The notes: generated by a model not told the origin, from the letters alone. Positions 9,360-59,331 are shown, numbered from the stretch's first letter. The stretch: 64,000 nucleotides of DNA from an uncultured Armatimonadetes bacterium (GCA_963717145.1 OY970325.1:1-64000); one strand, 5' to 3'. Numbers and translations: made by a program.

Positions 9360-10733
9360 ATGTCGCCGGACGACACGATTGCCGCCATTGCCACGCCCCT
9401 CGGAGAGGGCGGGCTGGCGGTGGTGCGCGTGTCCGGGGCGGATGCGCTGACCATTGCCGACCGCGTGTTTCGTCCCTCGGGCCGGTCGCCGCAGGCTCCT
9501 TCCCAGGTCGCCTCGCACACCTTGCATCATGGCTGGGTGGTGGGGGGGGAGCGGGTGGTGGACGAAGTGCTGCTGACGGTCATGCGGGCGCCGCGCACCT
9601 ACACGCGGGAGCACGTGGTGGAGATCTCCTGCCATGGCGGGCTGCTGGTGGCCAAACTGGTGCTGGAAGCGGTCCTGGAACATGGGGCGCGGCTGGCGCT
9701 GCCGGGGGAGTTCACCAAGCGGGCCTTCCTCAACGGGCGCCTCGACCTGGCCCAGGCCGAAGCGGTGGCCGACCTCATTCGTTCGCGGACCGAGCTGGCG
9801 CTAGCGGCCGCCAACGAGCAGCTCGCGGGCAAGCTCTCCCATCGCATGAACCGGCTGCGGGATGATTTGCTGGACCTTCTGGCCCACGTCGAAGCCCACA
9901 TCGATTTCCCGGAAGAGGACATTGCGCCTGACACAATGGCCCAGCTCTGTGGCCGGCTGCGGGAGGCTGTGACCTTCATGGACGAGTTCCTGCGCAGTGC
10001 GAGGGAAGGGCAGGTGCTGCGGCGGGGCCTCCGGGCCGCCATCATTGGCCTTCCCAACGTTGGCAAATCCAGCCTGCTCAATCAGCTTCTGGGCCACGAC
10101 CGCGCCATTGTCTCGCCGATGCCGGGCACCACGCGGGACACCATCGAGGAGACGGCCAACATCCGCGGATTGCCGGTCGTGTTTGTTGATACCGCCGGCT
10201 TGCGCGAGGCTGGAGACGAGATCGAAGGGGAAGGCGTCCGGCGCAGCCACGCCGCGCGGGCCCGGGCCGAGCTGGTTCTTCATGTGCTGGACGCTTCCGA
10301 GCCGCTGACCCCGGCGGACGAGGAGTGCCTGCGCGAGTATGCGGCCCGGGCCCACATCCTGGTATGCAACAAATGCGACCTGGGGCGCAAGCTGGTCCTG
10401 CCGCAAGTCCCGGGCGCGCCGGCGGTGGAGGTGAGCTGTGTGACAGGGCAGGGGATCGAGGTCCTCAAAGAGGCCATCCGCCAGGCCATTTGGGCGGGCG
10501 AAATCAAAGCGGAGATGCTGGAGGTCATGATCAATGCGCGACACCAGGAGGCCCTGCGCCGGGCCCGGGAGGCCGCGCTGCGCACGCGGGAGGCCCTGGA
10601 AGCGGGGCACTCTCTCGAACTGGCCGCGCTGGATTTGCGCCTCGCGGTGAATGCGGTGGGCGAGATCGTGGGCAAGACCACCACCGAGGATTTGCTCGAT
10701 TCAATTTTCAGCCAGTTCTGCATTGGCAAGTAG
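9360..10733 (+). CDS. mnmE: tRNA modification GTPase MnmE
   Basis: DTIAAIAT, GEFTKRAFLNGRLDL, GLPNVGKSS, GTTRD, DTAG, NKCD and terminal FCIGK. Confidence 0.97.
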   Translation: MSPDDTIAAIATPLGEGGLAVVRVSGADALTIADRVFRPSGRSPQAPSQVASHTLHHGWVVGGERVVDEVLLTVMRAPRTYTREHVVEISCHGGLLVAKLVLEAVLEHGARLALPGEFTKRAFLNGRLDLAQAEAVADLIRSRTELALAAANEQLAGKLSHRMNRLRDDLLDLLAHVEAHIDFPEEDIAPDTMAQLCGRLREAVTFMDEFLRSAREGQVLRRGLRAAIIGLPNVGKSSLLNQLLGHDRAIVSPMPGTTRDTIEETANIRGLPVVFVDTAGLREAGDEIEGEGVRRSHAARARAELVLHVLDASEPLTPADEECLREYAARAHILVCNKCDLGRKLVLPQVPGAPAVEVSCVTGQGIEVLKEAIRQAIWAGEIKAEMLEVMINARHQEALRRAREAALRTREALEAGHSLELAALDLRLAVNAVGEIVGKTTTEDLLDSIFSQFCIGK

Positions 10734-10749
10734 GCCGGTTTCCAAGGCG

Positions 10750-10990
10750 TGAACCGAACCTGCAATCGCAGTAGGGCGAGCCTCCTGGCGAGCCCAAACT
10801 TGATCAGGGCTCCGCAGGAGCGTCGCCCTACCAGGTTCATGGTCCCAACACGTGATTCTCGATTCATCCAGGCCGTCGATGAACTGCACCCCCGTAGGCT
10901 TCCAGCCTGTCGCTGGGGGTTCCCTTACGACAGGCCGGATGCCTGTCCCACGTCGGGGGAGCGGACGCCTCGGCGAGGCGTCCTACCAGC
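10750..10990. repeat. Mosaic REP/REPIN array containing a 52-bp unit
   Basis: GTAG...CTAC doublet at 10771-10831, reversed 52-bp unit at 10834-10885, and further hairpins at 10893-10951 and 10963-10986 (ggacgcctcggcgaggcgtcc). Confidence 0.75.
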
Positions 10991-11102
10991 CTTGAGTCCA
11001 GGGGATCCATGTGCGAAACACCTGTTCGGCGAGCTCTCCCGTTACCCTCCCAGGGGAGAGGGAGAATGGCAGGCAGTGTTGGCGGGAAACGACGGAGGCC
11101 GG

Positions 11103-12869
11103 TCAGACGGACGCGGGCCTCGTCCGTTTGCGGCCCAACTCTTCCCGGAGCTTGAGCAGCGGCAGGGTGTTGATCACGTCGGCTTTGGTGAGCCAGCCCT
11201 TGCGCGCGATCCCGGCGCCCAGGCGCAGGAACCCGGCCTGCTCCGAACGGTGCGCGTCCGGGTTGATGACGCACTTCACGCCCTTGCTCTTGGCGTAGGG
11301 CCAGAGCCGCCAGTCGAGATCGAACCGGAGCGGGTTGCAGTTCAGCTCGATCCAAGTGCCCGTTTCGGCACAGGCATCGATGACCGCCTGCTGGTTCACC
11401 TTGTAGGGTTCGCGCTCCAGGAGCAGCCGGCCGGTCAGGTGGCCGAGCATGTGCACGCAGGGGTTTTGCGCGGCGCGGATGAACCGCTTGGTGGTTTCGG
11501 CCTCGTTCTGCGAAAAGCCTTGGTGCAGGCTGGCGATCACCACATCCAGCTCCGCCAGCAGATCGTCATCGAAATCCAGCCGCCCCTCGGCCAGGATGTC
11601 CACCTCGGTTCCCGAAAGCAGCCGCACGTTTCGGCCCTCGTCCTTCAGCCGCTGATTCAGGTCGCGGATGGCCTGAATTTGCTTTCGCAGTTTCGCTGGC
11701 TCCAGCCCATTGGCCACGAACGAGGCCCGCGAGTGGTCGGTCACTGCCCAGTAATCGCAACCCAGCTCGTCGGCGAACTGCGCGATCTCCTCCAGACTCT
11801 CCCGGCCGTCGCTCCAGGTCGAGTGATTGTGCAGCGATCCCCGCAGGTCGGTCCATTCGACCAGGCGCGGGATCTTCCCTTGCTCGGCGGCCTCGAATTC
11901 GCCGTGGTCCTCCCGCAGCTCCGGCGGGATGTAGCTCAAGCCGAGCTTGTCGAAGACCTCTTCCTCGGTCTTGCAGGGCAGGCGCAGCTTGGGGTCACGG
12001 GTTTCCTCCTGGGACCGGAAGAGCCCGTATTCGTTCAGACGCAGCCCGCGCTGGATGGCCCGCTGGCGCATCACGATGTTGTGCTCCTTGCTGCCGGTGA
12101 AATACAGGAGCGCGAACGGATACTCGGAGTCGCTCACCACCCGCAGATCGGCCTGGATGCCGCCCTCGAGAATGACCGTGGCCTTGGTCTCGCCCTTGGC
12201 GCTGACGCTCAGCAGGCCCGGCTGGGTGGTGAAGAAGTCGATCACGTCGTGGGGATGCTTCGAGGACGCCAGGAAATCAACATCGCCGATGATCTCCTTG
12301 TGCCGGCGCACGCTGCCGCCCGTGCTGCACCGGATCACTTCCGGATGGCTCCGCAGCAGGTCCAGGATCGGCTCGGCGACGGTCAGGGCGTCGCTGAGCA
12401 GGTGACGGGAGGCATACTGGCGGCGGAAGCCGATGCCTTCGAGAATCTTGCTTTGCGTCTTGTCCCCGAACCCCTCCAAGCCCGCGATTTTTCCGGCCCG
12501 GCAGTCCTCTTCCAACTGGTCGATGCTCTCGATCTTGAGCCGGTCGTTAAGCGCTTTGACCTTCTTGGGGCCCAGCCCGGGGATGCGCAGCATGTCCACC
12601 AGCCCCGCGGGAACCGACGCCTTGAGCGCCTCATAATAATCCAATTTACCCGTGGTGACGAGTTCGCTGATCTTCTTCTGCAAACCCTCGCCGATGCCCT
12701 TAATTTCGCCGAGCCGGCTCTCGGCCACCACTTTGTCGAGCGGCTCCGTCAGCCCTTCGATGGCCCGGGCCGCATTCGAGTAGGCTCGAGTCTTGAAAGG
12801 ATTCTCGCCCTTCAACTCCAGCAGGGTGCCGATCTCGGTCAGGATTTCCGCCACTCGGTCTTTGTCCAT
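11103..12869 (-). CDS. polX: DNA polymerase X / PHP-domain 3'-5' exonuclease
   Basis: ENPFKTRAY, IPGLGPKK, GSVRR...GDVDF, YFTGSKEHN, HNHSTWSDG, TDHS, GHLTGR and NPDAH. Confidence 0.95.
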   Translation of the reverse strand: MDKDRVAEILTEIGTLLELKGENPFKTRAYSNAARAIEGLTEPLDKVVAESRLGEIKGIGEGLQKKISELVTTGKLDYYEALKASVPAGLVDMLRIPGLGPKKVKALNDRLKIESIDQLEEDCRAGKIAGLEGFGDKTQSKILEGIGFRRQYASRHLLSDALTVAEPILDLLRSHPEVIRCSTGGSVRRHKEIIGDVDFLASSKHPHDVIDFFTTQPGLLSVSAKGETKATVILEGGIQADLRVVSDSEYPFALLYFTGSKEHNIVMRQRAIQRGLRLNEYGLFRSQEETRDPKLRLPCKTEEEVFDKLGLSYIPPELREDHGEFEAAEQGKIPRLVEWTDLRGSLHNHSTWSDGRESLEEIAQFADELGCDYWAVTDHSRASFVANGLEPAKLRKQIQAIRDLNQRLKDEGRNVRLLSGTEVDILAEGRLDFDDDLLAELDVVIASLHQGFSQNEAETTKRFIRAAQNPCVHMLGHLTGRLLLEREPYKVNQQAVIDACAETGTWIELNCNPLRFDLDWRLWPYAKSKGVKCVINPDAHRSEQAGFLRLGAGIARKGWLTKADVINTLPLLKLREELGRKRTRPASV

Positions 12870-20702: not shown

Positions 20703-20983
20703 TTCTTGAGGGAAGGCTCTATGATTCAGCGATCGCCCCTTGGGACCAGGAACCGGGTAGGGACGCCTCGCTGAGGCGTCCGCTCCCCGACGGACCGCTC
20801 GGCCCGCCGTCGCCGGGCTTTGGCGGGGCGAGCGAGCGGTCCCTACCAGAGTCACGGTTCATGGAAAGCCTCCATGATTCAGCAATCACGTGTTGGGACC
20901 ATGAACCTCGGCGTAGCGGCGCTCGGCAGAGCGCCGGTGACTGCGCCTTGGCAGGAGATGGCGGCTCTCTGCCGAGAGCCGCT
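20703..20983. repeat. Mosaic array: 52-bp unit / REPIN / 52-bp unit / REPIN (last REPIN interrupted by an IS)
   Basis: Degenerate unit at 20703-20754, GTAG..CTAC at 20757-20846, unit with perfect 9-bp ends at 20856-20907, and GTAGCGGCGCTCGGCAGAGCGCCG from 20913. Confidence 0.8.
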
Positions 20984-22675: not shown

Positions 22676-22794
22676 GCCAAACTCCAGGGCGGCTCTCTGC
22701 CGAGAGCCGCTACGAGGGTACGGTTCATGGAAGTTCGCACGGCACCGCCTGTTTCGAGGGGTTTCCACGGAGCGGTGGTCTCGTCGGTGAGCCC

Positions 22795-45651: not shown

Positions 45652-46830
45652 GTGCGCGTACCGTGCGGCATGGCTTTGACACGATGTGGAGCGAAGAATC
45701 CGGCGGCGGTGGCGCTGGGGCGGCTGGGCGGCTCGAAGGGCGGGAAAGCGCGGGCGGCGAGGCTGTCGGCGGCGAAGCATTGCGACAACCGTCTGAAACA
45801 CGAAGGGAAGGAAGCGCCGCTGCTGTCGCAAGTGCGGGATTTAATCCTCGCAGCACGCCAGACGGTAGCGCGAGGCGTGAATGCCGCCCTGGTCATCCTC
45901 TACTGGAAAGTTGGCGACCGGATCCGCAAGGACATCTTGAAAGAGAGACGGGCTGACTACGGTGACGAGATCGTCGTGACACTGTCACGACAATTGACGG
46001 TGGAATTCGGACGCGGATTTGCCGAAAAGAATCTGCGGCGAATGGTGCAGTTTGCCGAGGTTTTTGGGGAGGAGCAAATTGTCGCGACGCTGTCACGACA
46101 ATTGGGCTGGTCTCACTTCGTGGAACTGTTACCTCTCAAGAAGCACCTGCAAAGGGACTTTTACGCGGAGATGTGCCGGGTGGAGGGCTGGAGCGTCAGG
46201 ATGCTGCGCAAAAAGATTGCGGGGATGCTCTACGAACGAACCGCACTGTCCAGGAAGCCCGCTAAAGTAGCTGAGATGGAACTGGCGCAATTGCGGGCCG
46301 AGGACAAGCTGACACCGGACCTGGTGTTCCGTGATCCGTATTTCTTGGATTTCCTGGGGTTGAAGGGGGCGTATTCGGAAAAAGACTTGGAAACAGGCAT
46401 TTTGCGGGAACTCGAAGCGTTCCTTGTGGAACTGGGGGGTGACTTTGCGTTCCTGGCTCGGCAGAAGCGCATCGTGGTGGACGGAGAGGATTTCTACCTT
46501 GACCTTCTGTTTTATCACCGACGGTTGCGGCGGTTGGTGGTGATTGACCTCAAGTTGGGCAGGTTTGATCCAGGCGACGTGGGGCAGATGGAATTCTATC
46601 TGCGGTGGATCAAGAAGCACGAGATGCGCCCGGGCGAGGCGGACCCCTTGGGGTTGATCTTATGCGCCGAAAAGTCGGACGAACGGATTGAGGTGTTTGA
46701 ACTGGCGGCCCGTGGCATTCGGGTGGCGGAGTATTTGACCGAACTGCCGCCAAAGAAGGTGCTGGAGGCCAAACTCCATGAGGCGGTGCGGGTGGCACAC
46801 GCTCGACTGGAAGAACGGGGCCGGAAGTGA
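45652..46830 (+). CDS. YhcG/DUF1016 PD-(D/E)XK nuclease-like protein (start uncertain)
   Basis: LYWKVG, GRGFAEKNLRRMVQF, LGWSHF, FRDPYFLDFLGL, FAFLARQKRI, DLLFYHRRLRRLVVIDLK and GQMEFY. Confidence 0.9.
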   Translation: MRVPCGMALTRCGAKNPAAVALGRLGGSKGGKARAARLSAAKHCDNRLKHEGKEAPLLSQVRDLILAARQTVARGVNAALVILYWKVGDRIRKDILKERRADYGDEIVVTLSRQLTVEFGRGFAEKNLRRMVQFAEVFGEEQIVATLSRQLGWSHFVELLPLKKHLQRDFYAEMCRVEGWSVRMLRKKIAGMLYERTALSRKPAKVAEMELAQLRAEDKLTPDLVFRDPYFLDFLGLKGAYSEKDLETGILRELEAFLVELGGDFAFLARQKRIVVDGEDFYLDLLFYHRRLRRLVVIDLKLGRFDPGDVGQMEFYLRWIKKHEMRPGEADPLGLILCAEKSDERIEVFELAARGIRVAEYLTELPPKKVLEAKLHEAVRVAHARLEERGRK

Positions 46831-47187: not shown

Positions 47188-49668
47188 CTATCGCGGCGCG
47201 TCAGCGCGGATCATGCGGAGGCCGAAGAGGGCGCCAATCTCGTTGCCCTGGGTGGCCTGGAACTTGACGGTCACCTTCTGTTTGCCCTTCACGGCTTCGG
47301 CGGGCACGGGGTATTCGACGTCGAAGAACCGCATGGGACCGCGGCGTTCGATGGTCTGCTCGCCCACGCGAACCCCGTCCACGAGGATTTCAAAGGTGCG
47401 CTCCTGCCACTCGTCGTGGTTGTACGTGACGACCAGCGCCATCGGATGGGCCGGATCCACTGGCAGGTCGAAGGAGAACCATTTGGAACCGCGGCGGCCG
47501 GCCCGGCCCAGGACGCGGACAGGTTCGGTGCTTTCGCCCTGCATGTTGGCGTCGCGCTCGGCCTGCATCTCGCCCGGTTGGGCAGAAGCCGACGGTGGCG
47601 GCTTCGAGCTTGCGCTGTCTCTCCCGTTCGGCGGCAATTTCGGCCGCTCGCTTGTCCCATTCCTGGAGCGTGAACAGGTCCCAATAGACCGCGTAGGTGC
47701 GGCGGTGCAGACGGTAGAACGGCACGAAATCCACGTCGCGATCCTTCCCCACACCCTCGGTGCGGAACGCGCCCGGCTTGTCCGGGACCGGCTTGAGCCA
47801 GTCAGCCACGGGCCGTTCCGCGCCGAGGAACACCGGCACATCGTCGAAGCTGCTCTGCCCGTCCCCTCCGCCCACGGCGTTCTCCTTCGGGACCCAGGTC
47901 CCCGGCCAGCACCAGCGGTCCCCAGAGGAGGGCCACGCGGCGGGGATTGTCCGGCAGCGGCTCCAGCCGGAGGGTCTTGGGCAGCGTGAGGGCGATGGTG
48001 TCGCCGCTCTTCCAGGTGCGCTTGAGCTCGACGTACGAGCTGGCCTTGGGCAGCGGAGGGTAGGGCACTCCGCGCGGCTGCTGACGGTCTCAGAGCGCGG
48101 CGCTGCCAGGAGTTCCGGCGCCACCGCTTCGCCGTTGACCTTGACGGAGAAGTTCGTGCCCACCCAGAACGGGCGGCGGAGGGCAATTGTGAATTCTTTC
48201 GGGCGTGCGACCGTGAGCCGGAGCGTGGCCGATTCGCCTTCGGGGAAATCGGTCTCCATGCTGAGCTTGACTCCGGCGGCGGCCCACTCGGCGGTGGAGG
48301 GCGCGTAGAGGTTCACCCAGAGCTTGTCGCCGGATTCGTAGTAGATGCCGTCGCCGTGCAGGGCGTGGCTTTCCATGCTGGAGCCGACGCAGCAGGTGAA
48401 GCCGCCGTCGAGCATGTTGCGCTCGTATTCGTGCTGCACGCCGCGGCCGACCGGCACCATGTAGCAGGCCCAGCCGTCCTGCGGGTCCAGGGAGGCCAGG
48501 ATGTGGTTGAAGAGGGCGCGCTCGTGGAAATCGGCGTAGTGGGCGTCGGGCCGCAGGGCGAACATCAGGCGGGTCATCTTGAGCATGTTATAGACGTTGC
48601 ACGTCTCGGCGGTGCGGCCGTCCACGCGGTCGCTCAGCTTGTCCGGTTCGCCGAAGTACTCGTCCTTGCCGTGGCCGCCGGTGGCGTAGCTGTGGTGCTG
48701 GACCACCCGGTCCCAGAAGAAGCGCGGCCGCATAGCCGTCGCCCGGATCGCCCACATAGGCGAAGCGGGCCAGGGAGCCGATCATCTTCGGCACCTGGGT
48801 GTTGCCGTGCTTGCCGCCGAGGTTGTCCTGGTGGCGCTTGAGCGGCTCGGTGAAGGCGCGATGCTCGAACTTGTAGGAGAGATCCAGCCAGCGTTTGTCG
48901 CCGGTGTCGGCGTAGAGATCGGCGAAGATCTCGTTCATGCCGCCGAACTCGGTGTTGAGCATGCGCTGGATCTGGGCGTCGCTCATTCGGGCCAGAATGC
49001 CCTCGGCCCAGGCGGCGAACTTGATTTCGAGCTCGAGCGCGGTCCTGTTGCCGGTGAAACGGTAGGCATCGCGCAGGCCGGCGTAGGTCTTGTGCAGCGT
49101 GTACCACGGCGACCACATGCCGTTGAGGTCGAAACCGCCGGAGCGGATGTCGCCCTGGGAGACCTGCTCGAAGAGGGCGGCCGCCGTCCGTGCCCTTCTG
49201 ATCCGTGATGGCGCCCAGGTAGCCGTTGCCGCGTTTGTCCTGCACTTCCTTCAGCTCCTTCACCAGGTAGTCGGCGCGCTCCTTGAATCGCGCATCGCCC
49301 GTGGCGACATACATCAGGCTCACGGCGGAGAGGTAATGGCCGCCAATATGGCCGGTGAGTTGCTTGCCGTTGACCGAATCCCAGCCGCCGTAGCCCTTGG
49401 CCTTGGGCTCGAGCCCGGCGCGCAGGCGGTAGCCGGCCAGCATGCGATCCGGCTCCAGGGCGAGCAGGTACTTCGCGTCGAGGTCCTGGGCGTTCTTGAG
49501 CGGGCCGCCGGTGAGGCGGACCGCCGCCAGGGGCAGGGGACGCGCGGCCTCCGGGATAACGGGAGCGACCGGCGCGGCGCCGGCCAGGGACGCGGCCGGG
49601 GCGGAGACGAAAGCCGGCGCAACGACCAGCCACGCGGGGAAGAACTGTCGCAAGAAACGGAGCTTCAT
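47188..49668 (-). CDS. Glycoside hydrolase family 127/146 (beta-L-arabinofuranosidase-like), several apparent frameshifts
   Basis: Signal peptide, GYGGWD, GHIGGHYLSA, PWYTLHK, TEFGGMNE, HGNTQVPK, AETCNVYNMLK and FTCCVGS, assembled across ORFs 48634, 48588, 47390, 47802 and 47188. Confidence 0.88.
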
Positions 49669-49693
49669 GGCGGAGAAGGGTAGCGGGGTGTCC

Positions 49694-50827
49694 TTACCGG
49701 CCGAGTGGCTTGCTCGTGATGAGACCGATGCCGCGCCCGCCTGTGGCGTCGTTCGCTCCGGGCACGGCGTTATAGAACATGTAGAGCGTGTCATTCCGTG
49801 GGTTATGGACCAGCGAGATCTTGTGGGCGTATTGCCGGTCCAGCCCGCTGGGGTTGCCGCCGGCCTTGTAGAGCGGCTCCGGGTGTGCGGTCCAGTGCAG
49901 TAGGTCGCGCGAGAACGCGACCATGATGTGCGCGCCGCCGCGGCCCACCCCGAAGTAGAACATGGTCCAGTGGTCGTCGTCGCGGAACACCTTGCCGTCG
50001 GAGCAGAAATTGGCATCGTAGCCGCCCGGGCGATTGCGCACCACCGGGTTGGCTGGGTAGCGCTTCCACTCGAGCAAGTCCGAGGAGAACGCCACGCCCA
50101 ACTGCTCGATGCTGCCGTGGGCGGCGTTGTAAAAGTTGAAGAAGCGCCCGCCGTGCTCGATCAGCCACGGCTGGTAGATGCAGTCCTTCTCCCAGCCGCC
50201 GCAGTCCGCATCGAAGACCGACAGGATGGGCTGGTTCCTGGCCCGCCGCCAGGCCAGGCCGTCGTCGCTTACGGCCACCCCTTCGTAGCCCGGCCGCAGC
50301 TCGTAACCGCCCTGGCGCGGATAGGCGCCGTAGAGCGTCCAGAACCTGCCCTCGCGCTTCTTGAGCCGCCGCGGGGCCCGGATGTCGTAGCTCTCGTAAA
50401 GATACGCTCCCACGACGCAGCCGCCGTGATCGAATTCGTTGGTGGGGCCATAGCCCATGGCCAGCCGGTAATTCCCCCAGTGCATCAGGTCGTCGCTCTC
50501 GCAAACGAAGGACTGATAGCCCCGCCCGTCGAAACCGATGAAGCTCATGAAGTACTTGTCGCGGCCGGGCACCTGGTAAACCGTGGGGACGTCGGTGCCC
50601 AGCAAGTTGGTGACGGGGCCGATGGCGGGGCGCGCCGGCACCACGTGATCGGGCCAGTAGTGCCACCCGCGGTAAGGAGCCGACCATCGGTCTAGCGTGG
50701 GGCCGTCGATGGCGTCGGCCGCGGGGGCCGCGGCTTCCGGGATGACCGGCTGTATGGCGGGCTCACCCCGAGAGTTCACGACCGACAGTGTGCCCAGGAC
50801 CAGCGCAAGGCAGAGACGATTCTTCAT
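49694..50827 (-). CDS. Secreted five-bladed beta-propeller glycosidase-like protein (GH32/43/130-like)
   Basis: ATG at 50827 with a signal peptide, and repeated S-D-D-x-x-W blade motifs (SDDLMHW, SDDGLAW, SSDLLEW, SRDLLHW). Confidence 0.75.
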   Translation of the reverse strand: MKNRLCLALVLGTLSVVNSRGEPAIQPVIPEAAAPAADAIDGPTLDRWSAPYRGWHYWPDHVVPARPAIGPVTNLLGTDVPTVYQVPGRDKYFMSFIGFDGRGYQSFVCESDDLMHWGNYRLAMGYGPTNEFDHGGCVVGAYLYESYDIRAPRRLKKREGRFWTLYGAYPRQGGYELRPGYEGVAVSDDGLAWRRARNQPILSVFDADCGGWEKDCIYQPWLIEHGGRFFNFYNAAHGSIEQLGVAFSSDLLEWKRYPANPVVRNRPGGYDANFCSDGKVFRDDDHWTMFYFGVGRGGAHIMVAFSRDLLHWTAHPEPLYKAGGNPSGLDRQYAHKISLVHNPRNDTLYMFYNAVPGANDATGGRGIGLITSKPLGR

Positions 50828-53477
50828 TGCGCCTTGATCCAGACCATGGAACGGCCGCCGCGATTGAGGCGGGCGTAGTTGGGAATGGCGAGCAGCGGCT
50901 TGCCATCCGTGAATTCCCCCTTGATGACCAGCACGCCACCCAGCAGGTCCGGGCGCCACTCGGTGGAGAGCGGGGCGGTCGGGCTGAGCGCGGAGTCCAG
51001 GTTCTGGTCCACGCTTTCGACGTTGTAGATCAGCGGCCCGTAGCGCAAGGCCACGCGGCCGCGCGTGGCCGCGATCCGGTCGCTTGCCTTGATCCTCTGC
51101 ACTTGCATTGGGACTTCCCACTCGACCACATCGCCGGCCTTCCAGGTGCGGTTGAGCACGGCGTAGCCTTTCTCCAGGATGGGCCGGACGGGACTTGCCG
51201 TTTACCGCGAGCGACGTCAGACCCTTGACCTCGGGCGTGTTGGTGTAGAGTTCGCTGGTCTGGCGGTCGGGCACGCGAATCTTGAGCGCGAACCGCTTCG
51301 AGGCCGCCGGGTTGACCGTGAGCGATACCTTGCCGCTCCAGGGGTAGTCGGTGGTTTGCACCAGCTGCACCGATGTGCCGGCCACGTTGTCGAGGGTGAC
51401 GGTGCTGCCGACGAAGAGGTTCACATACACCTGTCCTTGCCTTTGGTGTACATCCACGTCGGCAGCATGAGGAGCGTGCGCGGGATGTTGCCCACGCAGC
51501 ACGGGCAGCCGTGCCATTTGTAGCGCTTGCCGGATGAGTCCAGGGGGTTGGTGTAGGTGAAGTTCTGCCCGTCGAGGTCCACGTCGCCGAGGATGGCGTT
51601 GTAGAGCGTCTCCTCGTAGAGGTCGGCGTAGCGCGCCTCCTGCCAGGTCATCTGGAGCTTGTGCTGGAAGAACAGTTCGCCGCAGTTGGCGCAGGATTCG
51701 CAGTAGGCGTTGTTCGGCAGCGAGTAGTCCTTGCCGAAGCCCTTCCGAGGTTTCGCCGCTGCCCACGCCGCCGGTCACGTAGTACTTGCGGTTGACGATG
51801 TTGTTCCAGAGCGACAGCACGGCGCTGTGGTAATCGACGTCGCCGGTCTCCATCGCGACGTCGGCCATGCCGGAATAGGAATAGACGGCGCGCACGGCGT
51901 GGCCGACCGCTTCGTACTGCTGGGTGACGGGCAGATGGCTCTGGTCGTATTCCTCGCCGTTCCGGCGCGAGTCGAGCAGGAACTTGGCCAGCTCGACATA
52001 CTTGCGGCCGCTGGCCCGGGCCTTCCTTGTCGTCGACGAACCGGCCGAAGCGGACCAGCGCCTGTTCGAGTTCCTGGTGGCCTTCATACCAGGCCCGCTT
52101 CGGGGCGGGGCCGATGTTGTTGACCCAGCAATCGGCCAGGCGCCGGGCCGCCTCGAGCATCCGCGGGTCCTTGCCGTCGGTCATCAGGTAGTGCGCGATG
52201 GCCGCCTCGATGAAGTAGCCGGCCTGGTAGCCTTCGTGGTCGTGCTTGTTGCTCCAGCGCTTGATGCCCTGGATGGTGTACATGGTGTGGAGGTAGCCGT
52301 CGGGCTCCTGGGCGCTGAGGAGCTTGGGAATCCAGTCCTCGAGCGTCTTGCGCATCAGGGCCTGCGCCGCCGCGATCTCCGCATCGCCCTGCGGATCGAC
52401 CAGCAGGGCCACGCACATGGACTCGACGGTGTTGTAGACCCAGGTGTTGGCGAAGACGGGCCCGGTGTGCTTCGCCGGCTGGCCGGCCAGCTTCTTGCCC
52501 GCCTGGACGAAGTTCTCGATCCCGCCCTCCCTGGTTTCGGATCCTCGATCTTGCGGATGCAGTGGGGAATCCAATTGACGATCAGGTTCTTCAGGCGCGC
52601 CCGCCAGAAAGGGCTGCTGACCTGGTAGGCTCGGGGCCAAACGAACTGAAGGTGCGGGCCGGGGGAGGGGGGGTGACGGTGACCTGGATCGTGTCTGAGG
52701 CGGTGGTGGCCCCATCGTTGGCCGTCAGCTTGAGAACGTATTCGCCCGGCTGGAGAACCGGGCGGTGGTCTCGGCCGCGTTGGCGTCGGCGAAGGTGACT
52801 TTGCCCGGGCCGGACTCCTTGCTCCATTGGACAGCGGGTGCCGGGCGTGGCTTGCCGTCGTCCTTCACCGCGCCGCTCAGGTAGGTCTGGCCGGAAATAA
52901 CCACGAACCGATCCACGCCCGCGCTGACCGCGGGCGGAAAGTTGGGCGACTTGCCGCTGTCATAGACCCTCCATTCCAGGACGCCGGTGGAGGCCCCGCC
53001 GTCCGAATCGAATTCGAGCCGAAGCCTGGTGGTGGTGACCTCGGCAAAGGTGGTGGTGTTGTAACGGTTGGCGGCCAGACCCAGGCCGGCCGGGTTGGCC
53101 ACCTCGACGAAGTTGGCGCCGTCCCAATACTTGAGCCGGCAGGCCTTGGGCAACCGCACGCCGCCGCGGTCGTCGAACCAATAGACATCGGTGCGCGCCA
53201 CACTGATCGGCTGGCTCCACTCGTACTGGACCCATTGGGTGCCGGTGCGGGGCCAGTTGCCGTAGGCGCCGTGGCTCTTGTCGTTGGAGTGCTCGGGGTC
53301 GTAGCCGTCGTTCAGCGCCGTGATGGTTTCGTGGCCGGAGACATAGGACGTTGACGACTTGGCCACCAGGGCCAGGTTGGCGCCGGCAGGGGGAGGCGTC
53401 TGGGCGGACACCCCGGCGGTGAGACACCAGGTGGTCAGCAGGGCGGTGAGGGAGCGATCCAATCGAATGGGCAGCAT
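50824..53477 (-). CDS. GH127 beta-L-arabinofuranosidase-like protein with N-terminal discoidin/PKD-like domains, several apparent frameshifts
   Basis: Signal peptide, AQEPDGYLHT, HEGYQAGYFIEAAIAH, GHQELE, GHAVRAVY, YVTGGVGS, CPCCVGNIPR and RGRVALRYGPLIY, spread across consecutive ORFs. Confidence 0.85.
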
Positions 53478-53640
53478 AATTCAGTCAGTCGGCGCTTCGT
53501 TCAGCAACAGTTTGCAGCGATCCATTATCGTGTGTTTCTTAAGTATATTCCTCCCGCCCGGCTCTTGTCTTGTCCAAAATCGAAACTTTTCCTTGATTGT
53601 CGGCACGGGGCCGGACCGGCTGGCCCATCCACCGAGATCC

Positions 53641-53895
53641 GGGTCATGAAGAGCCTCCACGATTTCAGGAGCGCGCAATGGGCCCATGAACATCGGCGTA
53701 GCGGCGCTCGGCAGAGCGCCGGTGACTGGGCCTTGGCAGGAGATGGCGGCTCTCTGCCGAGAGCCGCTACGAGGTTACGGTTCATGGGCAGCCTCCATGA
53801 TTCCTTGAACGCGCGTTGCCACCATGAAGCGGGTAGGGCCGGACCGCCGGGCCGGCCGGTTCTGGGGAGGCGCGCCCGGCGGTCGCGCCCCACCT
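53641..53895. repeat. Mosaic array: 52-bp unit / REPIN / 52-bp unit / REPIN; contains the IS-free target site
   Basis: Units at 53641-53692 and 53779-53830. REPINs at 53698-53770 and 53833-53893. A single copy of the 24-mer lies at 53745-53768. Confidence 0.85.
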
Positions 53896-53973
53896 CAAAG
53901 ACGAGCCGGTTGCCCCGAAGAGGGAAAGGAGCCAAGCCTTGCGCGGCCGGGTCAGGATGTTACTGTCGGGGCG

Positions 53974-56900
53974 ATGGATTCAATCGCGCCACCTCTGCCC
54001 GGGCAAACTGCGCCGGCGGCCGGCCCGGGTACGCCCACGGCCGCGCTGGATGGAGGCCTGAGCTTTCAGAGCATCGTGGGCACGATCACCCCGGAGAACG
54101 AGTTGCTCGGGGTGGTCGCCGAACGCATCCGGCGCGCGGCCGCCCATCTCCATCTGAGCAGTGAGGACCTTTACCGCATTTTCAGCCGCCACAGCATCTT
54201 TGAAGGGGAGGGCAGCCTCACCTGGGAGGGGGGAGAGGTTCGGTTCTTCATTGTGGAAACGCACCACCTGATCCAGGGCAAGGTGGGCAAGGGGGCCCTG
54301 AAGCTGGTGTTCCCGCAGGATCTGCTGGGCAAGGGGGCCCAGTTCAGAGCGGCGGAGGCTGGCGCCGTGGAGGTGGTGCCGCGGGATGGAGCCGGCGGTT
54401 GGGCGGGACCGGAGGAGGCCGAGGAACTGGTCAAGCAGGCCATGCGCGAGTTCATGACCGGCGAAAGCCTGAGCATGAGCCTGAAATGCCAGGCCACGGG
54501 AGCTCCCTTTGCCGGCAGCGAGGGGCTGGTGCTTTGCGCGGCGCGAGATTTCGACGCGGCCGCGGGACGGTTTTTCCTCAGGCCGCTGCTGGGGGACAGC
54601 GACGAGACGGCCGCATCGGACCGCGAGCTGATCGATCTGATGATGAACCGGACGGCCGAGATTCTGACACTGGCGGGGCGGATCGCCTACGATCGGATCG
54701 TGCACGCCGCCGAGACCAATTCCACCCTGACGGCCCGGCTGGGGCTGCAGCTCCCCACCAACGTGGTCGAGGGCCATCTCCGGGCCCTGCTCCAGAGCCG
54801 GCCGGAAATCATCATCGGGGACGAGGACATGACGCCGCAGTTGCGCGAGCTGGTGCAGCAGGGCGACTACAAGCCGACGGCTTGCGCCCTGGCCCGGACT
54901 GCCGCCCAGATGCAGATCGAGCATTCCATCCTGCTCCAGGCATCACGGGAGAAGCTAAGGAACCTGCTGGCCGGCCTGCCCCCCCAGGGTTCGCCCAGCC
55001 CGGCCCAATACCGCGAGATCATCGATCTATTTTTTGGGACCGGTGAGATTCAGCAGAATGAGGACCAGCTTTACCACCACCGCGAGCTGATCCTTAAACC
55101 GTTGTCGATTGCCCTGTCGTTCCGTTGCCTGGACGAGTGCGGCGACTCCCAAGTGCTCGCGCTCTATCTCAAAACCCTCCTGGACAATCAGCGGGTCACC
55201 ATGGAGGCCACCTTGGCGAAGAGCCTGCGACCGGGGCAGGCCCTGCCGGCCAACTGGCTGGAAGGAGCGGTGTTTCTGTCCGCCGCCGCCCGCCAGCAAC
55301 TGGCGAGCCTCATGCCGACCCCGGAGGCGACCCGGCAGGCGGTCAAGGAGAGTTTTTGGGAGATTGTGAGGATTCTGTGCGATGCCCGGGCCCAAATCTG
55401 GAGCCAGCGCGACGACCCGTTTGCCGAAGCCAAGCGGGAGGTCTTGGAGCGCGCAATTCGGGCCATTACCTCCACGGGCGACGTGATCCCCTCGGTGGAC
55501 CGGCTCGTATTCTTTACCCTGCCTTACACCTATGAATGCGTCACGCCCAAGCTGGGCGTGGTGACGCGCAAGCCGGTGGCGGTTTGCGGCTCTGAATTAC
55601 GACCGGAGGCCATGGCGGTGGGCGGGGTCATGACGGTGGAGATTCTGCTCAAGAAACTGGGCCGAAAGAACCAACCGCTGGCAGGGATGACCGTGGCCAT
55701 CGAGGGGCTGGGCAATGCCGGCAAGCATGTGGCCCGGCTCATGGCAGACCGAGGCGCCCGGATCGTGGCGGTCAGCGACAGCACGGGCGCGCTCTTCAGC
55801 CCGGGCGGTTTCCCCCGGCCCGAACTGGACCGGATCATTGCTCACAAGGATCGCGGGCGGCGGCTCCGGAGCTTCGGATTGGAGGCCCTGCCGGAAGCGC
55901 CGGGCCCGGCCGTCAGCCCGGCCTATGAGTTCGATCCAGACCCCGACCGGCTCAAATCGATCGAAGCCGAGATCCTGGTGCTGACGGCCATCCCGGGCTC
56001 GATCCATGAGGCAAACGCCTCCGCGCTGAAGTGCCGGATCATCTGCGAGTTGACGGGGGCCGCCGTCACGGGAGCGGCCAGGGGGATCCTCCACGATCGG
56101 CAGGTGCGGGTCATCCCGGACAACCTGGCCAGCTCCGGCGGCTTGTTGGTCTCGCTCTCGGAGATGCTCCAGAACAGCGCCGGGCAGAATTGGGACCGGA
56201 AGCTCGAGGAGTTCAACCTCTACGAACAGCTTTCCGCCGGCACCGAGACCGCCTTCCGGCTGGCCGGAAAACATGGAGTGGATGTGCCGACGGCCACGGA
56301 TATGCTCGCGCTCCAGCGAATGCACGAACTCGCCCTTTACCGCGAGCGCGTGGAGATACTGGCCGCGCGGTTAAAAGAACGGATCGAGACGATCCAAGCG
56401 GGCGAGCAGGTCTTGATCGTTTCCGACGACGATGAAGACGGGGTGGCCTCGGCCGCCATTGTGCACGCCCTCATTACGGCGCTCAACCCGGCCGCCCGGG
56501 ACAGCGTGGTCTATTTGAACGAATCATTCCGTTCCGACGTGATCGGGGATGTCATCGAGCAGACCGACCAGACAGGGCGGCCCATCCGCCATGTGTTTGC
56601 CGTGGACCGAGCCTTCCCCCTGAGCGAGCCGGGCCAGACCCATATTGCGGGAGTCGCCGGCCGCTGCCGGTTGACTCTGATCAACAACCACGAGCTTCCC
56701 GCGGACCTGATGGGACGCGAGGCGGGTGAGCCTCAGCCCGGCGGGCGGTCGCGCCCCCGGCTCCCGGCCGAACTGGGCATCCTTTTCATTTCACCGCAAA
56801 CGCTCAAGTCCGTGCTGCCAGCCCGGGAGTTTCCGACGGCCATGATTCTCCGGGAACTGGCCGGCCAGCTCCTATCGGATGAGGGGCTCATGAGCCGCAT

Positions 56901-57594
56901 CGACTGGCAGGCCGCGGTGGGCAGTTACCTGGATGCGCCCGCCGAGAAGAACAGCGAATATCTGCTGTTTCATACCCGATTCAACCCGGACAAGATCCTG
57001 GAAGCGGCCCAGGCGGTTCGCATGGTCACGCGGGCCGGCGGCTTCCGGGAGGCGCTCCGCGCCATGGCGGGCGTGATTCGGCCCGACCAGCTTCGAACCA
57101 ACGAAACCTGGGAGCGATTCATGGCCGAATACCAAGTGCTGCGCGAGCGCGTGCAGGTGTTGGTCGAGAAAATCATCCTGGAAAACCGGCTGCGTCCCCT
57201 GACCTGCCATTTCTTCAGCCGGGACGAAGTGGCGTCGCCCACGCCGCTGGCCGGGAACACGGAAACACGGCTGGATTTGTACCATTGGATCTCCGAGCAC
57301 CTGACGCGCCGCGGCGACCTGGCCGACAAACCGATCATTGTCGGGCAGGTGATCGAGGACGCCAAAGGACGGGCGTGGTTGGGCGTACGCATCCGCAGCC
57401 CCCGCGGAGTGGACCTGATGGAAGCCGGCCTGCCTGAAGCGTTCCAGACGGGCGGGCTGCCCAACACCGCCGTGGCCCGAATCGGCCTGGATCCGAACAA
57501 CACCCCAGAGCAGCAGTTCTATGCCCTGGTCGATGACATCTGGTTGAAGACGTCCAGCCGCCTGCACCTCGGTCCGCCCACCACCCGCTCCTGA
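53974..57594 (+). CDS. Degenerate Glu/Leu/Phe/Val dehydrogenase-like protein fused to a C-terminal DHH/RecJ-like domain
   Basis: GDH-like MSLKC...PFAGSEG, VVTRKPVAVCGSELRPEA, VAIEGLGNAG, VAVSDSTG and VIPDNLASSGGLLVS..EMLQN. The C-terminal region has VLIVSDDDEDGVASAAI...VD...INNH. Confidence 0.75.
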   Translation: MDSIAPPLPGQTAPAAGPGTPTAALDGGLSFQSIVGTITPENELLGVVAERIRRAAAHLHLSSEDLYRIFSRHSIFEGEGSLTWEGGEVRFFIVETHHLIQGKVGKGALKLVFPQDLLGKGAQFRAAEAGAVEVVPRDGAGGWAGPEEAEELVKQAMREFMTGESLSMSLKCQATGAPFAGSEGLVLCAARDFDAAAGRFFLRPLLGDSDETAASDRELIDLMMNRTAEILTLAGRIAYDRIVHAAETNSTLTARLGLQLPTNVVEGHLRALLQSRPEIIIGDEDMTPQLRELVQQGDYKPTACALARTAAQMQIEHSILLQASREKLRNLLAGLPPQGSPSPAQYREIIDLFFGTGEIQQNEDQLYHHRELILKPLSIALSFRCLDECGDSQVLALYLKTLLDNQRVTMEATLAKSLRPGQALPANWLEGAVFLSAAARQQLASLMPTPEATRQAVKESFWEIVRILCDARAQIWSQRDDPFAEAKREVLERAIRAITSTGDVIPSVDRLVFFTLPYTYECVTPKLGVVTRKPVAVCGSELRPEAMAVGGVMTVEILLKKLGRKNQPLAGMTVAIEGLGNAGKHVARLMADRGARIVAVSDSTGALFSPGGFPRPELDRIIAHKDRGRRLRSFGLEALPEAPGPAVSPAYEFDPDPDRLKSIEAEILVLTAIPGSIHEANASALKCRIICELTGAAVTGAARGILHDRQVRVIPDNLASSGGLLVSLSEMLQNSAGQNWDRKLEEFNLYEQLSAGTETAFRLAGKHGVDVPTATDMLALQRMHELALYRERVEILAARLKERIETIQAGEQVLIVSDDDEDGVASAAIVHALITALNPAARDSVVYLNESFRSDVIGDVIEQTDQTGRPIRHVFAVDRAFPLSEPGQTHIAGVAGRCRLTLINNHELPADLMGREAGEPQPGGRSRPRLPAELGILFISPQTLKSVLPAREFPTAMILRELAGQLLSDEGLMSRIDWQAAVGSYLDAPAEKNSEYLLFHTRFNPDKILEAAQAVRMVTRAGGFREALRAMAGVIRPDQLRTNETWERFMAEYQVLRERVQVLVEKIILENRLRPLTCHFFSRDEVASPTPLAGNTETRLDLYHWISEHLTRRGDLADKPIIVGQVIEDAKGRAWLGVRIRSPRGVDLMEAGLPEAFQTGGLPNTAVARIGLDPNNTPEQQFYALVDDIWLKTSSRLHLGPPTTRS

Positions 57595-57603
57595 GGTCTG
57601 GCG

Positions 57604-59265
57604 TCACTTCCCGCCGGATGGCGGCTGGGACCGGGCGACCAGGAAGGCCTTCAGCTCCGCGGCCGCTTTGCCGCCGAAGCCGGGCACGGCCGCGATCTCC
57701 TCCACCACCGCCAGGCGCAGCCGCTGCACCGACCCGAATTTCTTGAGCAGGGCCGCTTTTCTCGCCTCGCCGATGCCGGGGAACTCATCGAGCACGCTTT
57801 CGGAGATCTTCCTCAGCCGGAGCTGAGCGTTGTAGGAGTTGGCCACCCGGTGGGACTCGTCCCGGATTCGCTGCAGCAGCTTCAGGGCATTCTGATCCTG
57901 GCTCAGCCGCAGCGGTTCTTCCTGCCCCGGCCGGTGGATTTCCTCGAATTCCTTGGCCAGCCCGATGACCGGGATGGCGCCCAGCCCCAGCTTCTCCAGT
58001 TCTTCCCGCGCCGCCGTCAACTGGCCTTTGCCGCCGTCGATGACGATGAGATCCGGAAGGTTCGAGGGTTTGGCCTGGCTTCCCGAAGGGACTGGCGCTT
58101 CTTCCTGGAGCCTCGGGAAGGCCTCGCCTGGCTGCTGCATCATCTTGCGCAGTTCCTCGACGATGGGACGGCCGGCTTCCTGGTCCTCGTCACCGGTTGG
58201 TGGGGGGCTGGCGGGGCCGGTGGCACCGGCCTCCCGCAGCAGGCGGGTGTAGCGCCGTCGCACCGCCTCCGCCATGCAGGCGAAGTCGTCCTGCCCTTCC
58301 ACGGACTTGGATCTTCATGCGCCGGTAATTGGCGCGGTCCGGCCGGCCCCGCCGGAAACTGACCACCGAGGCCACCTTGAGCGTGCCGCTGATGTTGGAG
58401 ATGTCGAAGCCCTCGATGCGCTCGGGCGGGCCGGGCAGGCCCAGCACCTTGCCCAGCTCCAGGTTGTCCCGCTCCGGCATCACCGCCACGGGCAGGTTCC
58501 AGGGGGTGCGCTCGAAGCGGGTGGTTTTCCGGGTGGTGTGCCGCAGGTCCACGACGGCATCGCGGAGCTGGGCGGCTTTCTCGTAGTCCTGGGCCGCCGC
58601 CGCTTTCTGCATCTCGCCTTCGAGCTGCGCCTGCAGTTCGTCGCACTGGCCGTCCAGGAACTCGCAGGCCGCCTGCACCTGCTCGCCGGTATTGCTCGAG
58701 CGCCACGTTGCCGATGCAGGGGGCGGTGCACCATTTGAGATTGCCGTAGAGGCAATGATTGTAGTCGGCCTCGGTGGGCGTGAGCACCCGGCAGCCGCGC
58801 AGGTTGAAGGTGCGTCGCATCAGCAGCAGGGTGCTGCGCAGGGCCCCGGCGTTGGGAAACGGGCCGAAATAGCGCGATCCGTCCTCCGTGCGCAGCCGGG
58901 TGAGCGTAAAGCGCGGGATCGGATCGTTGAGGTTCACCTTCACCAGCGGGAACCGCTTGTCGTCGCGGAAGCTGATGTTGTAGCGGGGCTGGAACTCCTT
59001 GATCAGCTTGCCTTCCAGCAGCAGGGCCTCCGCCTCGCCTCTGCACCACGTGCACGTCCAGGTCGTGGATGGCCTCCACCAGGGCGTTGAGCTTCAGGTC
59101 CCACCCCAGCCGGCGCGACGGATGAAAATACTGGCTGACCCGCTTGCGCAGGTCCCGCGCCTTGCCCACGTAGATGACCGTGCCGAACCGGTCCTTCATC
59201 AGGTACACACCCGGCTTGTGCGGCAGTTCGCCGAGCTTCTTGCGCACCTGTTCCGTGGCCGGCAT
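57604..59265 (-). CDS. uvrC: Excinuclease ABC subunit C (apparent frameshifts near 59040, 58685 and 58300)
   Basis: [65 protein letters not shown] and PGIG HhH. Confidence 0.93.
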
Positions 59266-59331
59266 GCCCGCCACTCTAACGGCCAGGGCCACCCCGTTTC
59301 AAGTCGGCTCCAGAAAGGAGCAGCACCTCGC

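Follow-up and report, generated by a model that had tools for sequence, protein, structure and literature searches.

Glutamate dehydrogenases (GDHs) stand at the point where carbon metabolism meets nitrogen metabolism, and non-catalytic regulatory GDH paralogues are known from very few systems. In the available part of the report on the Thermus thermophilus complex, GdhA is described as a catalytically inactive, leucine-responsive regulatory subunit, and the complex also uses a separate AMP-sensing subunit (PMC9570180). The available part of a preprint states that large GDHs (L-GDHs) keep their catalytic residues and carry ACT/PAS-type N-terminal domains, with no RecJ-like domain mentioned there; for C. 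symbiosum GDH (CsGDH), it assigns the binding of the gamma-carboxylate to Lys89 and Ser380, has Lys113 face the alpha-carboxylate, and gives Asp165 as catalytic (bioRxiv 10.1101/2024.12.26.630402). Here, we describe a gene located on a 64,000-nucleotide (nt) stretch of DNA from an uncultured Armatimonadetes bacterium (GCA_963717145.1 OY970325.1:1-64000; the whole stretch is called the window below). The gene, at 53974..57594, encodes a real, strongly conserved, uncharacterised protein of 1,206 amino acids (aa), in which a complete GDH fold without the catalytic lysine is joined to a RecJ-type domain whose metal site is altered. By analogy, Thermus GdhA and its separate AMP-sensing partner may be regarded as a functional precedent for this protein. 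The family to which it belongs represents a different solution, in which a complete GDH fold with a conserved charge-swapped pocket contains a large helical insert and is covalently linked to a RecJ-fold module, the metal centre of which is conserved yet non-canonical.

The original prediction, made from the sequence alone, had described an uninterrupted open reading frame (ORF) of 1,206 aa, and this ORF proved intact. The frame is open over window positions 53824..57594 on the plus strand (1,256 codons, reaching upstream to an ATG at 53824). A start at 53974 matches the lengths of the homologues (about 1,190-1,225 aa) and their query coverage of 97-100%; the 50 aa between the two positions are rich in Arg, Gly, and Pro. 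A k-mer and HMMER search returned 113 proteins, the window's own included, which leaves 112 other database clusters; about 100 of the 113 proteins are 1,143-1,255 aa long, with identities of 43-64%. The named homologues are called "hypothetical protein" or "Glu/Leu/Phe/Val dehydrogenase" and come from Verrucomicrobia/Limisphaerales and from Syntrophales, Deltaproteobacteria, or Thermodesulfobacteriota metagenome-assembled genomes (MAGs). In a pattern scan covering one genome per GTDB species, 47 stretches matched, 37 of which encode a relative, and these correspond to 33 distinct loci. All 33 are in MAGs, 19 with a Verrucomicrobi- or Limisphaerales label and 14 labelled delta, Syntrophales, Desulfuromonadales, Desulfurivibrio, or "Proteobacteria".

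An alignment of 51 sequences was made from the window protein and 50 full-length proteins, which were picked from the 112 others so as to span the identity range. It has a mean column identity of 62% and contains invariant residues from end to end. The ratio of nonsynonymous to synonymous substitution rates (dN/dS, omega) was calculated by the Nei-Gojobori method for nine pairs. In the four pairs with dS<1, omega was 0.06-0.17 for the whole gene and 0.04-0.40 for the individual parts, the maximum being that of domain II in a very close pair that has few changes; omega was 0.07-0.24 in the five remaining pairs, which are less reliable at a dS of 1.1-2.1. All four parts of the protein (both GDH domains, the insert, and the C-terminus) are under purifying selection, and none is decaying.

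Pfam recognised a single domain in the window protein, the NAD(P)-binding domain PF00208 (aa 539-786, E 9e-39), and PDB GDH chains were aligned by sequence to aa 527-790 (E 1.6e-28). This dinucleotide-binding domain (domain II), which opens at an LGVVTRKP...GSELR segment after the insert, is well preserved. An AlphaFold2 (AF2) model of aa 1-800, built from 27 sequences with a predicted local distance difference test score (pLDDT) of 82.6, was matched by Foldseek to whole GDH chains (E 1e-18; template-modelling score ~0.8 when normalised on targets of ~410 aa). With VIA-align, the top match was 3aoe_E (Z 33.5, root-mean-square deviation 2.5 Å, 409 of 416 residues), followed by three other GDHs (Z 29.7-30.4), a leucine dehydrogenase (25.1), and mycobacterial L-GDH180 (14.3). 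We identify chain E of 3AOE as GdhA because chain A is GdhB in the available part of the source (PMC9570180) and because of the chain lengths. In the model, the first ~800 residues (GDH part aa 28-794) adopt the whole GDH fold, with a helical insert interrupting it.

The N-terminal GDH domain family PF02812 gave no match to the window protein at E<=1, and a PF02812 scan of the whole genome detected two canonical gdh genes only, leaving the window gene undetected. Although PF02812 is unmatched, domain I is covered by structure, as nearly all GdhA residues align. When domain I of the family was compared with 28 canonical GDHs by hhalign, the probability was 7% (E 0.005); hhalign of aa 1-800 mis-extended into the insert, comparison with a single GDH aligned domain II only, and a profile search of the PDB with domain I alone gave nothing significant (best GDH E 1.4). 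In the model, two helices and a beta-hairpin are followed by strand 104-112, helix 146-175, strand 179-187, helix 210-233, and strand 242-247, a succession that agrees with the consensus of the 28 canonical GDHs and is also that of small GDHs. Two small insertions, at about aa 113-145 and 189-204, are extra to domain I.

The catalytic lysine of GDHs lies in the GGGKGG motif (CsGDH Lys125, which we take to have this role). In the window protein, the motif reads AGSEG, and the same register of PFAGSEG on P(F/Y/L)GGGKG was obtained in four alignments, namely phmmer against PDB GDHs, the family profile against the PDB, BLASTP against a GDH paralogue, and hhalign against the 28 canonical GDHs. Because all four agree, Glu183 replaces the catalytic lysine, as the prediction had claimed, and K171 comes to lie on the MTxK lysine. 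G181-S182-E183-G184 are invariant in the 51 sequences, as are K171 and S727; the latter lines up with the serine of GGVxVS, which corresponds to CsGDH Ser380, in the phmmer alignment and in the hhalign alignment of aa 1-800. G105-K106-G107-A108 and K110 are likewise invariant across the family, and by motif and strand order K106 probably corresponds to CsGDH Lys89, the lysine of the gamma-carboxylate. A further invariant segment, H244-A-A-E247-T248, would place E247 at the position of the catalytic aspartate (CsGDH Asp165), judging from motif and topology. On these assignments, the residues that hold both carboxylates of glutamate would be kept and the Lys/Asp catalytic pair would now be Glu/Glu.

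In domain II, GLGNAG (aa 578-583, of which G578, G580, N581, A582, and G583 are invariant), VSDS, PDNLASSGGLLVS, and PD.LA..GG are kept, EGAN is changed to ELTG (aa 692-695), and LANAGG is changed to LASSGG. Every motif quoted in the prediction was located in the translated ORF in the claimed order, including the replacements of PAPD by HAAE and of EGAN by ELTG next to a retained Rossmann GLGNAG. Set against the features of the Glu/Leu/Phe/Val dehydrogenases, the protein has PF00208 with its GxGxxG, Glu183 in place of the catalytic lysine, and, from motif and strand order, invariant Glu247 (HAAE) in place of the catalytic aspartate. We consider it a functional, non-canonical member of the GDH superfamily and, very probably, not a glutamate dehydrogenase. 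With canonical 50-kDa hexameric GDHs (C. symbiosum 1AUP/1BGV, T. maritima 1B26), it shares the whole fold, domain II, GxGxxG, and the places at which both carboxylate-binding lysines and the specificity serine sit, but it differs from them in Glu at the catalytic Lys and Asp positions, ELTG for EGAN, a domain I unrecognised by PF02812, and about 390 extra residues within the fold. The L-GDHs (L-GDH180/L-GDH115, M. smegmatis 7A1D) also hold a GDH catalytic core inside a much longer polypeptide with regulatory extensions; however, the structural match to 7a1d is weak (Z 14.3 vs about 30 for small GDHs), and no L-GDH-specific Pfam family was found among the window-protein matches at E<=1.

The two GDH domains are separated by a segment that the prediction had given as a probably helical insert of ~280 aa, in good agreement with an AF2 model composed entirely of helices across ~270 aa, running from about aa 250 to 525. 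The insert starts with an invariant EGHLR (aa 266-270) and has an omega of 0.04-0.10 in the four pairs with dS<1. It has no Pfam match, and its profile found nothing significant among PDB sequences (best E 0.99).

An AF2 model of the C-terminal 419 aa (27 sequences, pLDDT 85.6) was matched by Foldseek to RecJ-Cdc45, RecJ, and PF0399 (E 6e-10 to 1e-8, probability 1.0). The highest VIA-align scores were those of S. aureus RecJ 8y30 (Z 25.3, 345 aligned residues) and the T. thermophilus RecJ core 1ir6 (Z 24.4, 332 of 385), followed by PF0399 (21.5), archaeal RecJ-Cdc45 (21.3), PAP phosphatase (19.2), Cdc45 (12-18), NrnA (15.1), and GdpP (14.9), with unrelated folds beginning at Z ~8. According to the model, the C-terminal 416 residues adopt the RecJ core fold, with DHH and DHHA1 joined by a helical linker, which bears out the DHH-like C-terminus that had been predicted together with its change of DHH to NNH. 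At the sequence level, the window protein matched neither Pfam DHH (PF01368) nor DHHA1 (PF02272), and the NCBIfam RecJ model scored E 0.006, far under its cut-off. A profile of the C-terminal domain run against 1.84 billion representatives retrieved only 32 proteins at E<=0.001, these being family members or fragments and then distant matches. Pfam scanning of 12 of the 32 found DHH and DHHA1 in eight (P0165, P0167, P0170, and P0174-P0178), among which P0165 had been retrieved by the profile at E 1.5e-11. When short or stand-alone forms of the module were sought, all 42 matches were consistent with fragments of the family.

The aspartates D820, D822, D878, and D987 align with invariant Asp residues of the eight Pfam-verified DHH/DHHA1 proteins. 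In motif III, N904 (N117 there) is invariant and N905 and H906 are at least 90% conserved in the alignment of 27 sequences, and in that of 51 sequences the 90% level is reached by N904 and N905 and not by H906; G1160-G1161-L-P-N-T-A are at least 90% conserved in the latter. Both the NNH and the GGLP replacements are conserved family-wide, the most divergent member (L023) included. The nearest DHH relatives, P0165, P0171, and P0177, share a family-specific ISPK/Q segment and the loop after motif III, yet they keep DHH; motif III varies in one bona fide DHH relative too (IDNH in P0176). The label "degenerate" that the prediction attached to this domain is misleading, because the altered residues are invariant or nearly so, every part of the protein is under purifying selection, and the RecJ-like domain keeps four metal-binding Asp and one His.

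Bacterial RecJ cores (T. thermophilus 1IR6/2ZXO, S. aureus 8Y30) are built in the same way, from DHH, a long helical linker, and DHHA1 (Z 24-25), and have the motif I, II, and IV aspartates in common with the window protein, which differs from them in NNH for DHH, GGLP for GGGH, the lack of Pfam DHH/DHHA1 matches and of an OB-fold or other RecJ C-terminal domains, and the fusion to a GDH fold. Cdc45 and archaeal GAN/RecJ-Cdc45 (Z 16-21) resemble it as RecJ folds with a modified catalytic centre. They use this fold as a non-catalytic or specialised replisome subunit and are a precedent for a binding module, although no link to replication genes was seen for the family described here. Eukaryotic Cdc45 keeps fewer metal ligands than the RecJ-like domain does.

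Table 1. Coordinates of the gene, its domains and motifs, and associated features (window positions unless a locus is named)
Feature	Position	Strand	Residues (aa)	Remarks
Whole gene	53974..57594	+	1-1206	1,206 aa + stop; start fits homologue lengths and coverage and the 51-sequence alignment
GDH domain I (substrate/oligomerisation)	54055..54738	+	28-255	AF2 model and whole-GDH structural matches; highly diverged
VGKGALKLVFP	54283..54315	+	104-114	Strand, GPxKGGIRFhP equivalent according to the model's element order
SMSLKC...PFAGSEG	54472..54525	+	167-184 (PFAGSEG 178-184)	K171 on MTxK lysine (CsGDH Lys113); E183 on GGGKGG catalytic Lys
VHAAETN, in place of DvPAPDvxT	54700..54720	+	243-249	Strand 242-247 after helix 210-233, as in GDH
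Helical insert between GDH domains	54739..55548	+	256-525	~270 aa; all-helical in DSSP of AF2 model
GDH domain II (dinucleotide-binding)	55549..56343	+	526-790	PF00208 (E 9e-39), PDB GDHs (E 1.6e-28), hhalign probability 99.96
IEGLGNAGK			576-584	
CELTGAAV			691-698	
RecJ-core-like DHH + helical linker + DHHA1	56344..57591	+	791-1206	416 residues; AF2, Foldseek, VIA-align
DHH motif I, SDDDEDG	56422..56442	+	817-823	Kept; DxD pair D820 + D822, G823; invariant
DHH motif II, FAVDRA	56596..56613	+		D878; kept; invariant
DHH motif III, NNH for DHH (LINNHE)	56677..56694	+	902-907	N904, N905, H906; only second His kept
DHH motif IV Asp in SYLDAP	56923..56940	+		D987; kept; invariant in aligned family members and DHH proteins
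DHHA1 motif, TGGLPNTA for GGGHxxAAG	57442..57471	+	1159-1166 (GGLP 1160-1163)	Gly-Gly kept, His lost
~960-aa GDH paralogue copies	L001:5718-8648; L008:5775-8648; L019:16-2511; L004:13-1188			
PPDK_N protein loci	L071:8977-11646; L010:11581-14193; L015:8740-11352; L031:4532-7747; also L046, L043			L071 is the G000 (window genome) copy
GTAG-headed palindrome	53697..53771	.		25-nt arms, 92% complementary; intergenic, upstream of the gene

The window genome and the Verrucomicrobia genomes that hold the family fall in different phyla, as the genomes sampled from the two do not overlap. The gene was found neither in its 40 nearest relatives nor in 400 other genomes sampled from its phylum, and being the sole holder among 401 genomes suggests that this Armatimonadota genome acquired the gene horizontally. 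The family thus has a patchy distribution across phyla, which, like the PPDK_N link described below, was beyond what the prediction could draw from the sequence. In a quick IQ-TREE tree of 27 full-length rows, with seven partial or broken loci excluded, the window protein groups with two Verrucomicrobia sequences (SH-aLRT 100), and the Syntrophales-type sequences are nested inside the Verrucomicrobia ones; this topology fits horizontal spread and does not indicate a donor.

Of the 104 flanking ORFs of related loci, 70 were scanned, plus 12 ORFs in a second scan. The neighbourhoods proved variable, and only two neighbours recur. One is a ~960-aa GDH paralogue with an intact GGGKGG, which lies directly upstream of the gene in the Syntrophales-type loci L001, L004, L008, and L019, is on the opposite strand in L017, and is fragmented in L027. 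This paralogue has a ~400-aa N-terminal extension and a longer linker between the GDH domains, and its N-terminal domain was found in only 7 of the 33 holder genomes. None was found in the window genome beyond its two canonical gdh genes, at ~2.67 and 3.82 Mb; as these two are present, the fusion protein is not needed for the GDH activity of its host. In the L027 locus, of Syntrophales, a TOTE conflict-system AEP primase-like gene (10327-12027) stands directly downstream of the gene, probably by coincidence.

The other recurring neighbour is a protein of ~870-890 aa with PPDK_N as its only Pfam domain, located 26 nt downstream of the gene in L010, L014, and L015, which form one close lineage. 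In L031, the place between the gene and a canonical gdh is taken by a 1,071-aa PPDK_N paralogue with a fused nucleotidyltransferase, and the copy in the window genome (G000 4329976-4332642, at 4.33 Mb) has transposase genes adjoining it. In three genomes of one genus, all without the fusion gene (G017, G019, and G021), the PPDK_N protein is encoded directly upstream of a canonical gdh; the ORF after gdh in loci of this type matched neither of the two profiles of the fusion family. At a threshold of E<=1e-30, the PPDK_N protein occurred in 30 of the 33 holder genomes (19/19 Verrucomicrobia-labelled and 11/14 others, best E all <=1e-129), in 28 of 400 genomes sampled from the window's phylum, and in 97 of 400 from the phylum of the L024 genome (about 80 of them at E<=1e-100). 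It was missing from three holder genomes, all of them small MAGs whose completeness is not known. The PPDK_N family is very large: a threshold of E<=1e-50 gives at least 8,000 homologues, which are annotated as "PEP/pyruvate-binding domain-containing protein" or "phosphoenolpyruvate synthase"; homologues are 65-73% identical across several phyla, the nearest named ones being from Armatimonadota MAGs (69-73%), and the protein had no match among PDB sequences at E<=0.01. The fusion family points to this widespread protein, which may be a general partner of GDH-fold proteins.

For the function, we propose tentatively, with somewhat less than an even chance, that the GDH part is a ligand-sensing scaffold and not a dehydrogenase, and that the RecJ-like module coupled to it serves for binding or as a phosphoesterase. 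The charge-swapped pocket would still bind a glutamate-like dicarboxylic amino acid, with two acidic side chains facing the alpha-ammonium. Given that the carboxylate-binding residues appear to be kept and two acidic side chains would face the amino group, a glutamate-like amino-acid site without hydride transfer is the most economical reading. NAD(P)(H) would probably still be bound, without hydride-transfer chemistry, so that the GDH part would be a scaffold that senses metabolites and is probably oligomeric. The RecJ-like module is proposed to bind, besides a divalent metal, either a phosphorylated nucleotide or a single-stranded nucleic-acid ligand, with weak or altered hydrolysis, and to serve as an output or a second sensor; since it keeps ligands for at least one metal but has lost the Asp-His of motif III and the His of DHHA1, it would either bind its ligand or hydrolyse it slowly or in an altered way. 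The protein would probably work together with the ~880-aa PPDK_N-type ATP-utilising protein, which is linked elsewhere to canonical gdh. The residues kept and lost are also consistent with the original prediction of an amino-acid/NAD(P)H sensor with a nucleotide- or nucleic-acid-binding output.

Several points weigh against the sensing scaffold. The invariance of the remodelled sites suits a new catalytic chemistry equally well. Asn is able to coordinate Mg/Mn, and the RecJ-like domain may for this reason be an active phosphoesterase; the changes of EGAN to ELTG and of LANAGG to LASSGG, on the nicotinamide side, leave NAD(P) binding not assured. The equivalences of K106 and E247 come from motif and topology rather than from residue-level superposition. 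Apart from the two recurring neighbours, the gene neighbourhoods are unconserved. The co-occurrence with the PPDK_N protein is a lead and not proof, as the counts ignore shared ancestry, the holder group is defined by the gene itself, and adjacency is seen in few lineages.

A bifunctional enzyme with new chemistry is possible, though on balance unlikely. Its Glu/Glu pocket would carry out an NAD(P)-dependent reaction on a non-glutamate substrate, its RecJ-like domain would hydrolyse a phosphate or nucleotidyl ester, and the pathway would begin with the ATP-dependent PPDK_N protein. The invariant altered active-site residues, the retention of four Asp ligands and one His of the DHH family, the low omega of all parts, the varied motif III of the bona fide DHH relative P0176, and the adjacency and co-occurrence with the ATP-grasp-type PPDK_N protein all fit such an enzyme, whereas the loss of both the DHHA1 His and the motif III Asp-His pair and the lack of a conserved metabolic operon around the gene do not. 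To our knowledge, moreover, all characterised Glu/Leu/Phe/Val dehydrogenases use the lysine that is Glu here. Improbable, in our judgement, is a regulatory subunit that co-assembles with an active GDH paralogue as Thermus GdhA does with GdhB, the RecJ-like domain being a built-in nucleotide sensor in place of the separate AMP-sensing subunit. As far as the available part of the source describes it (PMC9570180), the Thermus system is similar in using a GDH fold without dehydrogenase function for regulation and in recruiting an AMP sensor, and GdhA (419 aa) is the best structural match, but other GDHs lie within about 3 Z units of it. The ~960-aa paralogue directly upstream in four loci, the canonical gdh two genes upstream in L031, and the two canonical gdh genes of the host would suit such a subunit; however, the N-terminal domain of the large paralogue was found in only 7 of the 33 holder genomes, no such paralogue was found in the window genome, no gdh is adjacent in the window or in 19 of 26 full-length loci, and the insertions in domain I may alter interfaces. 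GdhA is also a plain subunit of ~420 aa encoded beside gdhB, unlike the 1,206-aa protein with its 270-aa insert, fused RecJ-like module, usual lack of an adjacent gdh, and Lys to Glu and Asp to Glu swaps.

We rate as quite improbable a DNA- or RNA-processing factor in which a RecJ- or Cdc45-like single-strand nucleic-acid module is carried on a purely structural, GDH-derived oligomeric platform. The best structural matches of the C-terminus are bacterial RecJ cores and then archaeal RecJ/GAN and Cdc45, and uvrC lies convergent with the gene and immediately downstream of it in the window, but neither uvrC nor other repair genes were neighbours in related loci among the 70 of 104 flanking ORFs scanned, and a GDH part with a structural role only would not be expected to hold its pocket residues and GxGxxG invariant. 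The chance that the ORF is a decaying pseudogene, or a chance or assembly artefact in GC-rich DNA, is practically nil. Frameshifted genes lie nearby and the ~65% GC of the window favours long spurious ORFs, but the homologue searches and dN/dS refute this reading, with full-length homologues of 43-65% identity in 33 genomes of at least three phyla, an omega of ~0.1, and two confident models. Returning to the sensing scaffold, an extension that we hold to be decidedly unlikely would unite the fusion and PPDK_N proteins in an unrecognised GDH-centred module. Its charge-swapped pocket would sense the status of glutamate and NAD(P)(H) and thereby gate a nuclease or phosphoesterase of RecJ type, whose substrate would be a phosphorylated nucleotide or a short nucleic acid, and the PPDK_N protein would regulate ordinary GDHs in many phyla. 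If true, nucleotide or RNA turnover would be tied directly to the nitrogen and redox state.

Both folds are already known. The novelty lies in their combination, in a pocket with conserved Lys to Glu and Asp to Glu changes, in the insert of 270 aa, in a RecJ centre that reads NNH and GGLP, and in the link to the PPDK_N protein. The fusion is not an annotated family: its whole architecture is covered by no Pfam or NCBIfam model, NCBIfam GDH and RecJ models match below threshold only, and database names are generic. A literature search of open-access full texts and bioRxiv found no description of a GDH-RecJ fusion or of a PPDK_N-gdh link. Strong selection maintains the family in anaerobe-associated Verrucomicrobiota and Syntrophales that are uncultured, and an Armatimonadota genome has apparently received it by transfer. 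It offers a defined target for learning what is bound by a GDH pocket with Lys changed to Glu and what role a RecJ fold with NNH plays. If the protein proves to be a plain scaffold, the interest would be mainly evolutionary.

PADLOC defence models did not match the protein. The strict sigma-54 -24/-12 pattern was absent upstream of the gene in the 27 loci checked, and sigma-54 activator genes are found near L003, L024, L032, and L033. Among sequencing runs, the best share of words was 0.19. In one metatranscriptome (X20), two 151-nt contigs fall within the gene with 3 and 1 differences; they are at most a weak hint of expression and do not establish a habitat.

The remark in the prediction that the assembly is rich in indels was fair, because the genes next to the fusion gene look frameshifted. 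GH127 beta-L-arabinofuranosidase domains are spread over four overlapping ORFs (window 47390-52715), and uvrC is divided among three (57604-59292), its GIY-YIG and RNase-H/HhH parts lying in different frames; the uvrC of relatives is only about 50% identical to that of the window. These split genes are either assembly indels or pseudogenes, and the 3.6-kb gene between them is uninterrupted. A DUF1016/YhcG PD-(D/E)xK nuclease gene lies at window 45652-46830 (E 1e-46). The GTAG-headed palindrome upstream of the fusion gene is flanked by a 51-nt direct repeat (53640-53690 and 53778-53828) and has further copies in the window, one at 20905-20983 (97% identity) and a partial one at 22688-22723. It is probably a repeat of the repetitive extragenic palindromic (REP) type and not part of the function of the protein. 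In soil and wetland metagenome contigs, the depth of the palindrome region is much above that of the gene.

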